Positions 59,480 to 62,121 of a stretch of 64,000 nt of DNA are shown here, in pieces. Below the pieces are notes generated by a model that saw nothing but the letters and a program-made list of their open reading frames with translations, was not told the origin of the DNA and made no database searches. The stretch is from Anaerolineae bacterium (lineage in GTDB: Bacteria; Chloroflexota; Anaerolineae; Aggregatilineales; Phototrophicaceae): contig JAJDZV010000002.1 of NCBI GenBank assembly GCA_022824465.1, positions 20,192 to 84,191 on the forward strand. Direction: 5' to 3'. Each line of letters begins with the position of its first letter. Position 1 is the stretch's first letter. Both the position numbers and the translations under genes were made by a program.

Positions 59480-61726
59480 ATGACACAAACGCAGCGTTCC
59501 AAACGCTTTGAGTTGCTCGCCAAGCGCGACATCAACAAAGAGACTTATGTCGAGCCTTGGCCCGAAGCCGGCTTGATCGTCGCCGACAGCCCTTACGATC
59601 CGCAGCCGAGCCTCAGCATCACTGCGGGGACGGTCGTCGAAATGGATGGCGTCGCCCAGGCGGACTTTGACGCCCTCGACCGTTTCATCGTCTCTCACGC
59701 GCTTGATCTCGCCGTCGCCGACGAGGCAATGGCAATTCCATCACAAGAATACGCGCGCATGTTGGCCGACATCAATGTGCCGCGAGAAGCTATCGCCCGC
59801 CTGATCGCCGGCTGCACGCCAGCCAAACTGACCGACATCATGCGGCATCTCAATGTGCTGGAAATGATGATGGGCTTGACGAAGATGCGCATTCGCCGTC
59901 AGCCAGCCAATCAAGCGCATGTGACCAACTGGCGCGAGCATCCAGCCCTGCTGGCGGCTGACGCGGCTGAGGCGGCATTGCGCGGTTTCGCCGAGGTCGA
60001 GACGACCGTGCGAGTGGCGCGATTCGCCCCCTTGAATGCGCTAGCCATCCTGGTTGGCGCGCAGACGGGAAGAGGCGGCGTACTGACGCAGTGCTCGGTC
60101 GAAGAGGCGCTGGGCTTGCGCCTGGCGATGAAAGGACTGACGAGCTACGCCGAGACACTCTCGGTTTACGGCACGGAGAGAACTTTTGTCGATGGCGATG
60201 ATACGCCCTGGTCAAAGGCTTTTCTGGCTTCAGCCTACGCCTCGCGCGGCGTGAAAATCCGCTTCACCTCCGGCACAGGCTCGGAAGCGCTTATGGGACG
60301 CGCTGAGAAGAAATCGATGCTCTATCTGGAAGCGCGCTGCCTGCTGGTGGTCAAAGGCGCGGGCAGCCAAGGCGTGCAGAATGGCTCGATTTCTTGCATC
60401 GCTCTGCCGGAAGCCTTGCCCGGCGGCGTGCGGGCCGTGCTGGCGGAGAACTTGCTGGCGGCGATGCTCGGCTTGGAAGTGGCGGCCGGCAACGATGCGC
60501 TTGCTTCGCATTCGAGCATCCGCAAGACAGCGAAGCTCATGCTGCAATTCATCCCCGGCGCCGACTTCATCTTCAGCGGCTACAGCGCCATACCCAAGCG
60601 CGACAACCTCTTCGGCGGCGGCAACTTCGATGCCGAAGACTTTGACGATTACAACACCTTGCAGCGCGATATGCAGATTGACGGCGGCGTGCAGCCCATC
60701 AGCGAGGACGAGGCGCTGAACATCCGCCAAATGGCTGCGCGCGCCATTCAAGCGGTCTATCGCGAACTGGACCTGCCGCCGATCACGGACGAGGAGGTGG
60801 AGGCGGCGACGGTCGCCCATAGCAGCGACGATATGCCGGAGCGGGATATCGTGCCCGATCTGGAAGCGGCTGACGCCTTTATGGCGAGCGACCGGGACTT
60901 CGTCGCCGTGATTCAAGCCTTGCAAGTTAGCGGTTTCGCCGATGTCGCCGATAATATCCTCGAGATGGGTCGGCAGCGCATCGCCGCGGATTATTTGCAG
61001 CCCTCGGCGATATTCGATGCCGACTTCAAAGTGCGGAGCGCCATCAACGACGCGAACGATTATACTGGACCCGGCAGTGGGTACCGCCCGGCCGGGCAGC
61101 GCTGGGCGGCCATGCAAGGCATCCCGCAAGCCAAGTCGCCGGAAGGCTTCGTCCAGCCACATAGCGGCGCGCCGCTTTCGCGCTTGGTCGAGATTGGTCC
61201 CGCGAGCAAAGGCCTTCAGAAGGAGGTCCTGCTCGCCGTCGGTCCAGCCTTTGGGCGCGGGCTGACGACGACTATCGGCGGCTTGGCGCATGAAGACGTG
61301 TTAAAAGCTATTCTGTCCGGCATCGCAGGCGAGGGCATGATCGCGCGGATCCTGCGTGTCTATCATTCTTCCGATTGCGCCGCTATCGGCTACGTCGGCG
61401 CGCGCTTGAGCGGCAGCGGCATCGGCATCGGCTTGCAATCGCGGGGCACCGCCGTCATCCATCAGAAAGACCTGGCGCCGCTGAATAATCTCGAACTCTT
61501 TCCCCAATCGCCCAGCCTGACGCTTGCGACCTACGAAGCCATCGGCCGCAACGCCGCTCGTTATGCGCTTGGCTTGGCGACTGTGCCGGTGGCGGTCAAG
61601 ATCGACAATGGCGCGCGCCTGCGCTTGATCGTCAAGACAGCGCTGCTGCACCGCCGCGAGACCGACGAAGTCGATCCTGACAAGCGGCCGCAAGCATTGC
61701 GCTTCGATTGGGAGCCGGATCTATGA
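59480..61726 (+). CDS. pduCD: Adenosylcobalamin-dependent diol/glycerol dehydratase, large (alpha) and medium (beta) subunits fused
   Basis: aa 1-~555 are collinear with PduC/PddA/DhaB1 ([117 protein letters not shown]). aa ~581-748 are collinear with the PduD/PddB core ([56 protein letters not shown]). Confidence 0.9.
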   Translation: [748 protein letters not shown]

Positions 61727-62121
61727 GCGACTACCCACTGCGGGAAAAGGCGGCCGATGCCTTGCTGACGCACAGTGGACGGCCGCTCTGCGAAGTCAGC
61801 GGAGAAGCGTTGGCGGCCGGCAAGTTGCGCGGCGCTGACCTGCGCGTCCACGCCGATACCCTGCGGCAACAGGCTGGCATCGCGAGCGATGGAGGCTACC
61901 CACAGTTGGCGGCCAATCTGCTGCGCGCGGCGGAACTGACCAATGTGCCCAACGAAGAGATGCTCAAGATCTACGAGTCGCTGCGGCCCGAGCGCGCCTC
62001 GTACGACGAATTGCAGCGCCTGGCGGATTATCTCGAGCGGAACTATAGCGCAAAAGAGAACGCCGCTTTCATCCGCGAAGCCGCCGCCGTCTACCGCGAG
62101 CGCAATCTCTTGCGGCGATGA
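61723..62121 (+). CDS. pduE: Diol/glycerol dehydratase small (gamma) subunit
   Basis: MSDYPL...GADLRVHADTLRQQAGIA...QLAANLLRAAELTNVPNEEMLKIYESLRPERASYDEL..LADYLE..Y.A...AAFIREAAAVY is collinear with PduE/PddC. ATGA overlap with the fused gene. Confidence 0.85.
   Translation: MSDYPLREKAADALLTHSGRPLCEVSGEALAAGKLRGADLRVHADTLRQQAGIASDGGYPQLAANLLRAAELTNVPNEEMLKIYESLRPERASYDELQRLADYLERNYSAKENAAFIREAAAVYRERNLLRR

Follow-up and report, generated by a model that had tools for sequence, protein, structure and literature searches.

In practical use, B12-dependent diol and glycerol dehydratases are limited chiefly by suicide inactivation and by their need for a reactivase that consumes ATP, for instance in the production of 1,3-propanediol, 3-hydroxypropionate or butanone. 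Here we describe the locus of such an enzyme, dependent on adenosylcobalamin (AdoCbl), from an Anaerolineae bacterium (contig JAJDZV010000002.1). It lies in a 64-kb window, by which we mean the whole stretch of DNA that was analysed; coordinates are window positions unless another locus is named. The large (alpha) and medium (beta) subunits are encoded as one polypeptide, the small (gamma) subunit is encoded separately, and genes for a reactivase, an adenosyltransferase or a microcompartment shell are absent from the neighbourhood.

A 2020 review (PMC7674605) states that it is not known how fusing alpha to beta influences inactivation and reactivation. In the reactivation model given there, the reactivase beta displaces the dehydratase beta in an ATP-driven swap and damaged cobalamin is released. 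The review describes three engineered alpha-beta fusions, for which it cites Wang 2009, Maddock 2017 and Gibson 2013. The proximity of the alpha C-terminus to the beta N-terminus is given as the reason why fusion is tolerated; fusion stabilises the dehydratase complex and can raise stability or slow inactivation, and an accidental alpha-beta fusion of Klebsiella pneumoniae glycerol dehydratase (KpGDHt) was inactivated more slowly in lysate (PMC7674605). For Mesorhizobium loti and Mycobacterium smegmatis, the same review quotes Liu et al. 2010 on natural B12-dependent glycerol dehydratases of alpha-gamma composition, in which the alpha subunit carries beta homology. In M. smegmatis, three genes are listed as 'glycerol dehydratase large subunit' and are uncharacterised (PMC8088520). 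The literature that we searched yielded no biochemical characterisation of a natural fusion, and nothing relevant on Chloroflexi or sponge propanediol dehydratase or on a mycobacterial reactivase. In nature the fusion occurs in several lineages.

Large and medium subunits are encoded by one gene

The fused gene (59480..61726, forward strand) encodes 748 amino acids (aa) and was delimited from the list of open reading frames (ORFs) and by comparison with Pfam, NCBIfam and the Protein Data Bank (PDB). Its large-subunit (alpha) domain (59495..61144, forward strand) corresponds to aa 6-555, the limits of the match to Dehydratase_LU (PF02286; E 4e-264, 877.7 bits against a cut-off of 25), and the NCBIfam large-subunit model NF011979 scores 863 bits (cut-off 788). 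The medium-subunit (beta, cobalamin-binding) domain, aa 581-748 together with the stop codon (61220..61726, forward strand), was placed from PF02288, NF011616 and the PDB chains 1dio_B and 1mmf_B. Dehydratase_MU (PF02288) spans aa 589-698 with 91 bits (cut-off 27). The medium-subunit model NF011616 aligns profile positions 41-217 of 219 to aa 567-742; its score of 215 bits stays below the cut-off of 248 because profile positions 1-40 are absent. Among proteins of known structure, the alpha chains of diol and glycerol dehydratases match at 700-747 bits and the beta chains at 144-167 bits, and an engineered fused K. pneumoniae glycerol dehydratase (9via) matches end to end at 895 bits. The profile searches thus bear out the proposal, made in a first-pass annotation of this DNA, that a single 748-aa ORF covers both subunits; with E-values of this order a chance match can be disregarded. 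By these matches the locus is predicted to encode a genuine AdoCbl-dependent diol dehydratase with alpha and beta in one polypeptide.

The fusion is shared by all close relatives and by distant clades

With each species represented by one genome, 506 stretches were found to encode a relative, and the best 80 (L001-L080) were examined. All 80 belong to Chloroflexota (Phototrophicaceae, Aggregatilineales, Caldilineaceae and other Anaerolineae), share 70-94% identity with the window protein and come from independent assemblies, some of them long-read complete chromosomes. Every one carries an uninterrupted fused ORF, in most cases of 743-758 aa; the few longer ORFs result from upstream start codons.

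Three protein searches were run, with clusters at 90% identity and the 120 best listed in each. All 120 best-listed clusters were fused in every search, at least 360 in total. The window protein retrieved a Chloroflexota clade of fused proteins about 745 aa long. A second, alphaproteobacterial clade came from a search with a plasmid gene of Agrobacterium cucumeris and has fused members in Rhizobium, Mesorhizobium, Bradyrhizobium, Shinella, Starkeya, Parvibaculaceae and Rhodobacterales, and the third search recovered a Gaiellales/Thermoleophilia clade whose best-listed clusters are likewise fused. Representatives at 50% identity were useless for counting fused families, as the conserved large subunit collapses into a few full-length clusters amid fragments. 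In the databases the fused proteins routinely bear the name 'propanediol/glycerol family dehydratase large subunit'. The rarity that the first-pass annotation had implied is therefore not borne out by these counts: the fused architecture is widespread, routinely annotated and previously noted in the literature, and as an architecture it is not new.

A rough neighbour-joining tree of alpha domains places the Chloroflexota and Gaiellales-type fused clades beside the classical unfused enzymes. The alphaproteobacterial fused clade branches deeper, with the unfused classical enzymes between it and the other two fused clades, in a tree with thin unfused sampling and no mycobacterial sequence. Given that sampling, both independent fusions and fission in the classical lineage may fit.

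The fused and small subunits lack the N-terminal extensions of Pdu enzymes

The junction segment, aa 556-580 (61145..61219, forward strand), had first been taken for a linker of about 25 aa that replaces the N-terminus of the medium subunit. The loss of the N-terminus was confirmed and the spacer was not. Residues 37-221 of 1dio_B align to residues 560-741 of the fused protein, so aa 556-580 are homologous to the medium subunit. Among 81 sequences, F557, G563, P565, L569, E571, G573, A575 and G578 are each kept in at least 71, and the alignment has no gap at the alpha/beta junction. In an AlphaFold2 model that is otherwise poor, the local confidence (predicted local distance difference test, pLDDT) is 88-93 for aa 561-580. 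We conclude that aa 556-580 are, by homology, the counterpart of PduD from about residue 37 onwards and not an inserted spacer. The beta domain has lost no more than the N-terminal ~36 aa of PduD, the segment in which the targeting helix had been expected.

The small subunit (132 aa; 61723..62121, forward strand) was identified by PF02287 (140 bits, cut-off 25). The NCBIfam small-subunit subfamily models all score below their cut-offs (best 135 bits against 183-196). It is 45% identical to residues 40-170 of Salmonella PduE, and the N-terminal ~39 aa of PduE are absent. As had been noted, this subunit has its own gene with an ATGA overlap: its ATG (61723) overlaps the TGA of the fused gene (61724-61726). 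Of the 81 loci (window counted), 76 contain a PduE-like match. In L057, L061 and L070, three Chloroflexota loci with enough flanking sequence, no PduE-like small-subunit match was found within ~10 kb of the fused gene.

N-terminal encapsulation peptides are present on PduD and PduE associated with bacterial microcompartments (BMCs) and missing from non-BMC controls (PMC4594438). Neither subunit of the window enzyme has such an extension, and neither the window nor the 80 loci gave a match to PduA, PduJ, PduN, PduT or PduU. Because encapsulation extensions and shell genes are both absent, the enzyme probably works free in the cytoplasm.

The active site is conserved and the substrate pocket is remodelled

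Residues were mapped on Salmonella PduC, in which positions 141, 143, 170, 221, 296, 335 and 362 match the Klebsiella oxytoca numbering of the literature. The Ca-binding and catalytic residues Q141, H143, E170, E221, Q296, D335 and S362 are identical in the window protein and in 81/81 sequences, so that the active-site and Ca-site contexts are intact, as had been supposed from the sequence by eye.

Around the substrate, three positions differ from the classical enzymes. V300I, Q336A and T337L are found in 81/81 Chloroflexota sequences, and in the window protein I300, A336 and L337 lie in the alpha domain; F374, S301 and T222 are unchanged. A Gaiellales-type representative has I300/A336/I337, the alphaproteobacterial fused clade has D301/G302/T336/R-K337, and unfused representatives retain Q336. 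In classical enzymes, Q336 helps to position the C3-OH of glycerol. The pocket is thus predicted to be slightly larger and more hydrophobic around substrate C3, which makes glycerol less likely as the main substrate and favours 1,2-propanediol or a diol that is slightly longer. The earlier hint at a non-classical substrate finds some support in these invariant substitutions.

The corresponding single mutation has been studied in K. oxytoca diol dehydratase. Q336A lowered the rate of glycerol-induced inactivation 14-fold, from 1.15 to 0.081 per min (Table 1 of PMC7674605), and kcat on glycerol fell from 173 to 30 per s (PMC7674605). A sulfonated diol, dihydroxypropanesulfonate (DHPS), was also considered as substrate and dropped, the Chloroflexota pocket being more hydrophobic with no cationic residue gained.

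No reactivase or adenosyltransferase gene was found near the fused genes

Probes for accessory functions were taken from annotated loci: Salmonella PduA, G, H, J, M, N, O, Q, T, U, V and W, and K. oxytoca DdrA, GdrB, adenosyltransferase and DhaT. The searches covered 64 kb of the source genome and, in relatives, flanks of ~10 kb on each side of the fused gene. In tblastn with these probes, the window and L001-L080 gave matches to the three dehydratase subunits only, and L081, L084, L085 and L087-L090 gave no accessory match save for shell proteins in L088. When nearly all ORFs of the window were scanned with Pfam, none matched a reactivase, EutA, adenosyltransferase, MeaB or BMC family. The Pfam lists for further fused loci, again ~10 kb each side, contained no reactivase or adenosyltransferase, and shell genes in L088 only. 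Locally, these data agree with the observation that had drawn attention to the locus, namely that no reactivase, adenosyltransferase or shell gene is near.

The probes are sensitive enough to detect distant reactivases. Salmonella PduG matches haloarchaeal reactivases at 55% identity, and in a plasmid collection the reactivase was detected in 84 records and the dehydratase in 93. Where the dehydratase is unfused, the reactivase gene follows the small-subunit gene directly in K. oxytoca and Salmonella, and in Halomarina, Cetobacterium and Ilyobacter it is found ~0.5 kb downstream of the dehydratase genes. Fusion and an adjacent reactivase coincide in 0 of 89 fused loci (the window and 88 others, from three phyla), a count that refers to the neighbourhood only.

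One fused locus does have shell genes. In L088 (Pseudohalocynthiibacter, CP049037.1; regions 1202-3451 and 10001-12683), BMC shell genes (PF00936 and EutN) lie ~6.5 kb from the fused dehydratase, together with an aldehyde dehydrogenase, an APH kinase and an SDR. The locus resembles an RMM-type microcompartment locus, and its fused protein keeps Q336. With shell genes beside this one Rhodobacterales locus, fusion is not strictly shell-free.

Proposed role and alternative explanations

From these observations we infer, with a probability of about 0.6, that the fused enzyme is a cytosolic 1,2-propanediol-type dehydratase of (deoxy-)sugar catabolism that depends less on reactivase than its classical counterparts. 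The gamma subunit would be supplied from its own gene, translationally coupled to the alpha-beta gene. Catalysis would follow the classical radical and Ca2+ chemistry, in which Co-C homolysis, hydrogen abstraction at C1, migration of the OH group and loss of water yield an aldehyde. The substrate would be a small diol with a hydrophobic tail; 1,2-propanediol is our best guess, and propanal would then be the product. Aldol cleavage of 2-keto-3-deoxy (deoxy)sugar acids releases lactaldehyde, glycolaldehyde or glyceraldehyde, and reduction of these gives the three classical substrates of diol dehydratases. The diol could accordingly be imported, or arise by reduction of lactaldehyde freed by cleavage of a (deoxy)sugar acid, with 6-deoxyhexoses as a possible origin. 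The covalent alpha-beta tether, together with the Q336A-type pocket, may lower the need for a DdrAB-type reactivase, and the tethered beta domain might itself hinder the reactivase beta swap.

Judged by their neighbouring genes the hosts appear to be aerobic, and haem A/O synthase genes adjoin the dehydratase in some loci. Because diol dehydratase holoenzyme without substrate is inactivated by O2, the lack of an adjacent reactivase is somewhat more surprising. Alternatively, the enzyme may be served by a reactivase encoded at another site, or the protein may simply be turned over.

Several points weigh against this proposal. None of the neighbouring genes reaches the NCBIfam equivalog cut-off for fuconate or rhamnonate dehydratase, and beside the dehydratase genes no lactaldehyde reductase, propanal dehydrogenase or propanol dehydrogenase could be identified. 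Gene neighbourhoods vary in the more distant loci, and the GDPD/Ugp-like block upstream could indicate glycerol. K. oxytoca Q336A has a lower kcat and a higher Km for 1,2-propanediol (PMC7674605). The AlphaFold2 model, built from a 49-sequence alignment, is poor (mean pLDDT 67, predicted template modelling score (pTM) 0.53). A reactivase or adenosyltransferase elsewhere in the genome may also exist, which would be compatible with a search of neighbourhoods.

A more far-reaching version can be put forward tentatively. The fused clades might form a distinct class of reactivase-independent, cytoplasmic enzymes of aerobic bacteria, with the tether and the remodelling at positions 300, 301, 336 and 337 jointly responsible. 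Suicide and O2 inactivation would then be suppressed, or the damaged cofactor would exchange spontaneously; the ATP-driven beta-swap chaperone would be dispensable, perhaps even mechanically incompatible, and the substrate range would be shifted away from glycerol.

As to other substrates, we consider it doubtful that the enzyme is a glycerol dehydratase converting glycerol from imported glycerophosphodiesters or glycerol-containing glycans to 3-hydroxypropanal. Such a role would suit the same-strand block of a solute-binding protein, two permeases, a MalK ATPase, a GDPD and a MetE-like protein, which abuts the dehydratase in ~25 loci, and the alpha domain is slightly closer to K. oxytoca glycerol dehydratase (59.7% identity) than to Salmonella PduC (56.1%). 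However, many loci lack the GDPD block, and the GDPD product is glycerol-3-phosphate, which is not a substrate. Ala replaces Q336 throughout the clade, in K. oxytoca the same change costs most of the kcat on glycerol (173 to 30 per s; PMC7674605), and positions 300 and 337 are more hydrophobic. Glycerol is moreover the strongest inactivating substrate and fits poorly with the missing adjacent reactivase.

We rate slightly lower the idea of a larger, non-classical vicinal diol, such as a deoxy-sugar acid or 2-keto-3-deoxy intermediate formed by the adjacent enolase-superfamily dehydratases, or a C4-C6 diol or polyol imported by the ABC transporter. The pocket changes are invariant inside each fused clade and differ between clades, and the gene is set tightly between transporter and sugar-acid dehydratase genes. 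S301A/Q336A mutants are reportedly the subject of Yamanishi et al. 2012. The title of that paper, as it stands in the reference list of PMC7674605, has a redesigned diol dehydratase acting on longer-chain 1,2-diols. Nevertheless, the net change in side-chain volume in the window enzyme (Gln to Ala, Val to Ile) would amount to only about one methylene, F374, S301 and T222 are unchanged, and there is no charged residue to bind a carboxylate. Enzymes of this family have their active site in a closed barrel, which takes small diols only (PDB 1DIO/1EEX).

It is very improbable that the locus is a classical Pdu/Dha system with its accessory genes a short way beyond the window. Only 1.9 kb of the window follows the small subunit, so that the window by itself could not exclude this. 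The first-pass annotation had raised the same concern, of a reactivase and shell operon beyond the edge, and two close relatives (91% and 87% identity) speak to it. In both, the gene order is transporter, GDPD, MetE-like, fused dehydratase, small subunit, enolase, enolase, DHDPS-like and enolase, with a GFO/IDH/MocA gene on the opposite strand after the third enolase gene. Since nothing Pdu/Dha-like, and no reactivase or shell operon, occurs within ~10 kb on each side in these relatives, the window edge is unlikely to hide one. The probes also found no accessory match in the 80 loci, and both subunits lack encapsulation extensions. Finally, an assembly or sequencing artefact, in which a missed stop or frameshift merged separate large and medium genes, has a negligible chance: it was raised a priori and gained no support, and it is excluded for practical purposes by the same intact ORF in 80/80 independently assembled loci and the gap-free, conserved junction, with 360/360 listed protein clusters also fused.

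If the fused enzymes do not need a reactivase, they would be ready-made robust catalysts and a natural test of the beta-swap model. If a reactivase is simply encoded elsewhere, the locus would be an ordinary variant in gene organisation. What is of interest is that an adjacent reactivase is strictly lacking from the fused loci and that the pocket is remodelled in a clade-specific way; both bear on the engineering question left open in PMC7674605. The locus also suggests how abundant aerobic Chloroflexota may dispose of glycan-derived small diols without a microcompartment.

Gene neighbourhood and window content

The neighbours are those previously described, a DUF624 membrane protein upstream and enolase-superfamily genes downstream, as confirmed by Pfam. 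The DUF624/MusI-like membrane protein (58777..59427, forward strand; PF04854 and a weak NCBIfam MusI_fam match) ends 53 nt upstream of the dehydratase, a position conserved in ~11 loci, and is probably an ABC-transporter accessory. It follows a CUT1-type ABC sugar transporter (54947..58231, forward strand; Pfam) made up of a solute-binding protein (54947-56251) and two permeases (56384-57316 and 57320-58231), and a CUT1 block precedes the dehydratase in ~10 related loci. Divergent from this transporter is a GFO/IDH/MocA-family oxidoreductase (53750..54772, reverse strand; Pfam, weak NCBIfam IolG-like matches).

Further upstream, Pfam, NCBIfam and gene order define a forward-strand block (45639..53735) for a solute-binding protein, a permease, a PDZ-containing permease, a MalK-type ATPase, a GDPD phosphodiesterase (50725-52482, forward strand) and a MetE-like protein (52530-53735, forward strand). 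A block of this type directly abuts the dehydratase in ~25 relatives and is absent from many loci. Its PDZ-containing ABC permease (BPD_transp_1; 48099-49673) contains an internal PDZ domain at aa ~133-205 that is conserved in ~21 related loci, and the N-terminal ~300 aa of the GDPD phosphodiesterase have no Pfam match; the gene after the latter encodes a stand-alone MetE catalytic-domain protein.

Downstream, the first enolase-superfamily gene (62362..63660, forward strand; PF13378, PF02746) encodes a galactonate/mannonate-dehydratase-like sugar-acid dehydratase, with NCBIfam matches below every equivalog cut-off. The listed ORF (62218-63660) starts at a TTG at 62218; because homologues have ~425 aa, the start is probably at the ATGs of 62362-62380. 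The second (63789..64000, forward strand) is glucarate-dehydratase-like and is cut by the window end. The available part is 83% identical to the N-terminus of a protein from another fused locus (L084, 14084-15361), which itself scores 309 bits with TIGR03247, under the cut-off. Enolase-superfamily genes adjoin the dehydratase in 47 of 80 loci, in several arrangements. Also recurrent near the dehydratase in the 80 loci are genes for DHDPS-like or RraA-like aldolases, PfkB, UxuA, SDRs and MFS or ABC transporters.

In L085 an insertion sequence element with a DDE_Tnp_1 transposase (12765-13778) separates the small-subunit gene from the first enolase-superfamily gene, which indicates that the dehydratase and enolase blocks are separable. 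An arylsulfotransferase-like (ASST) gene stands between them in nine loci (L008, L009, L011, L017, L018, L023, L030, L037 and L068; for example L009 6775-8154).

Fused loci outside Chloroflexota have other surroundings. The alphaproteobacterial loci L081 (9989-12262, on Agrobacterium cucumeris plasmid pO132a), L087 and L089 carry the substitutions S301D, C302G, Q336T and T337R/K. In L081 and L089 the fused gene belongs to an operon that encodes a CUT1 ABC transporter along with an SDR, an APH-type kinase and a class-III aminotransferase. Upstream of the gene in L087 there are only the transporter genes, and downstream an SDR. These three loci may belong to an amino-diol or amino-alcohol pathway. 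In two loci of the Gaiellales/Thermoleophilia (L090 2927-5570 and L091 9601-12244) the order is reversed, the small-subunit gene coming first and overlapping the fused gene. L090 has malate synthase and an FAH hydrolase as neighbours. L091, which is of the Thermoleophilia type, has an SDR, two FAH-family hydrolases, an aldehyde dehydrogenase and glycolate/lactate-oxidase-like genes, and we take its SDR, FAH-hydrolase and aldehyde dehydrogenase set to be typical of non-phosphorylative deoxy-sugar pathways.

By its predicted gene content the window as a whole is a glycan-utilisation island. Pfam also identified a LacI regulator, five ABC sugar or peptide transporters, two sulfatases (30669-32195 and 35827-37233), an AXE1 acetyl-xylan esterase (14685-15707), NamZ (5977-7134), DUF2961 (21836-22951), four PhyH-family dioxygenases (12474-13403, 37362-38171, 38364-39389 and 44427-45473) and a tandem pair of fatty-acid-desaturase-family genes (41828-43108 and 43121-44266). 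The four PhyH and two desaturase genes, together with the sulfatases, AXE1, NamZ and DUF2961, point to an aerobic glycan-degrading lifestyle. Genes for an N6/N4 DNA methylase (668-1564, reverse strand) and a small HNH endonuclease (2598-2900, reverse strand), both assigned by Pfam, lie at the left window end. An Rfam scan of the whole window found no family at gathering score, and hence no cobalamin riboswitch. A promoter and terminator scan of 54700-64000 gave counts at the level of shuffled controls, and operon boundaries therefore follow from spacing and synteny only.

Comparison with known systems

The PduCDE (PddABC) enzymes of Salmonella and Klebsiella resemble the window enzyme in sequence (56% alpha identity) and chemistry, and 1,2-propanediol is a likely shared substrate. 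Unlike it, they bear encapsulation peptides on PduD and PduE, and their loci contain PduGH, PduO and shell genes. Klebsiella DhaB123 (GldABC) is closer, with ~60% alpha identity and the same Ca and catalytic residues, and it too is cytosolic with short beta and gamma N-termini. In contrast to the window, DhaB123 is encoded by three subunit genes with the gene for the large subunit of its reactivase (GdrAB/DhaFG) immediately downstream and an adenosyltransferase in the locus, and it has V300, Q336 and T337.

In architecture the nearest natural counterparts are the M. loti and M. smegmatis fusions, which as described in PMC7674605 share with the window one large-plus-medium polypeptide and a separate small subunit. 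The sequence comparison was made with members of the alphaproteobacterial clade. The alphaproteobacterial and actinobacterial fused loci that we examined resemble the window in having no adjacent reactivase. Identity between that clade and the window protein is no more than 45-49%, and the alphaproteobacterial pocket reads D301/G302/T336/R-K337 against I300/S301/A336/L337.

The engineered K. pneumoniae fusions (PDB 9via, 9vi2, 9vig and others) have the same domain order and almost the same length, 754 aa against 748 aa in the window. Their linkers are either artificial or the result of reading through a stop codon, in which case the beta N-terminus is retained in full. The window enzyme differs from both designs in that alpha residue ~555 is joined directly to the equivalent of beta residue ~37.

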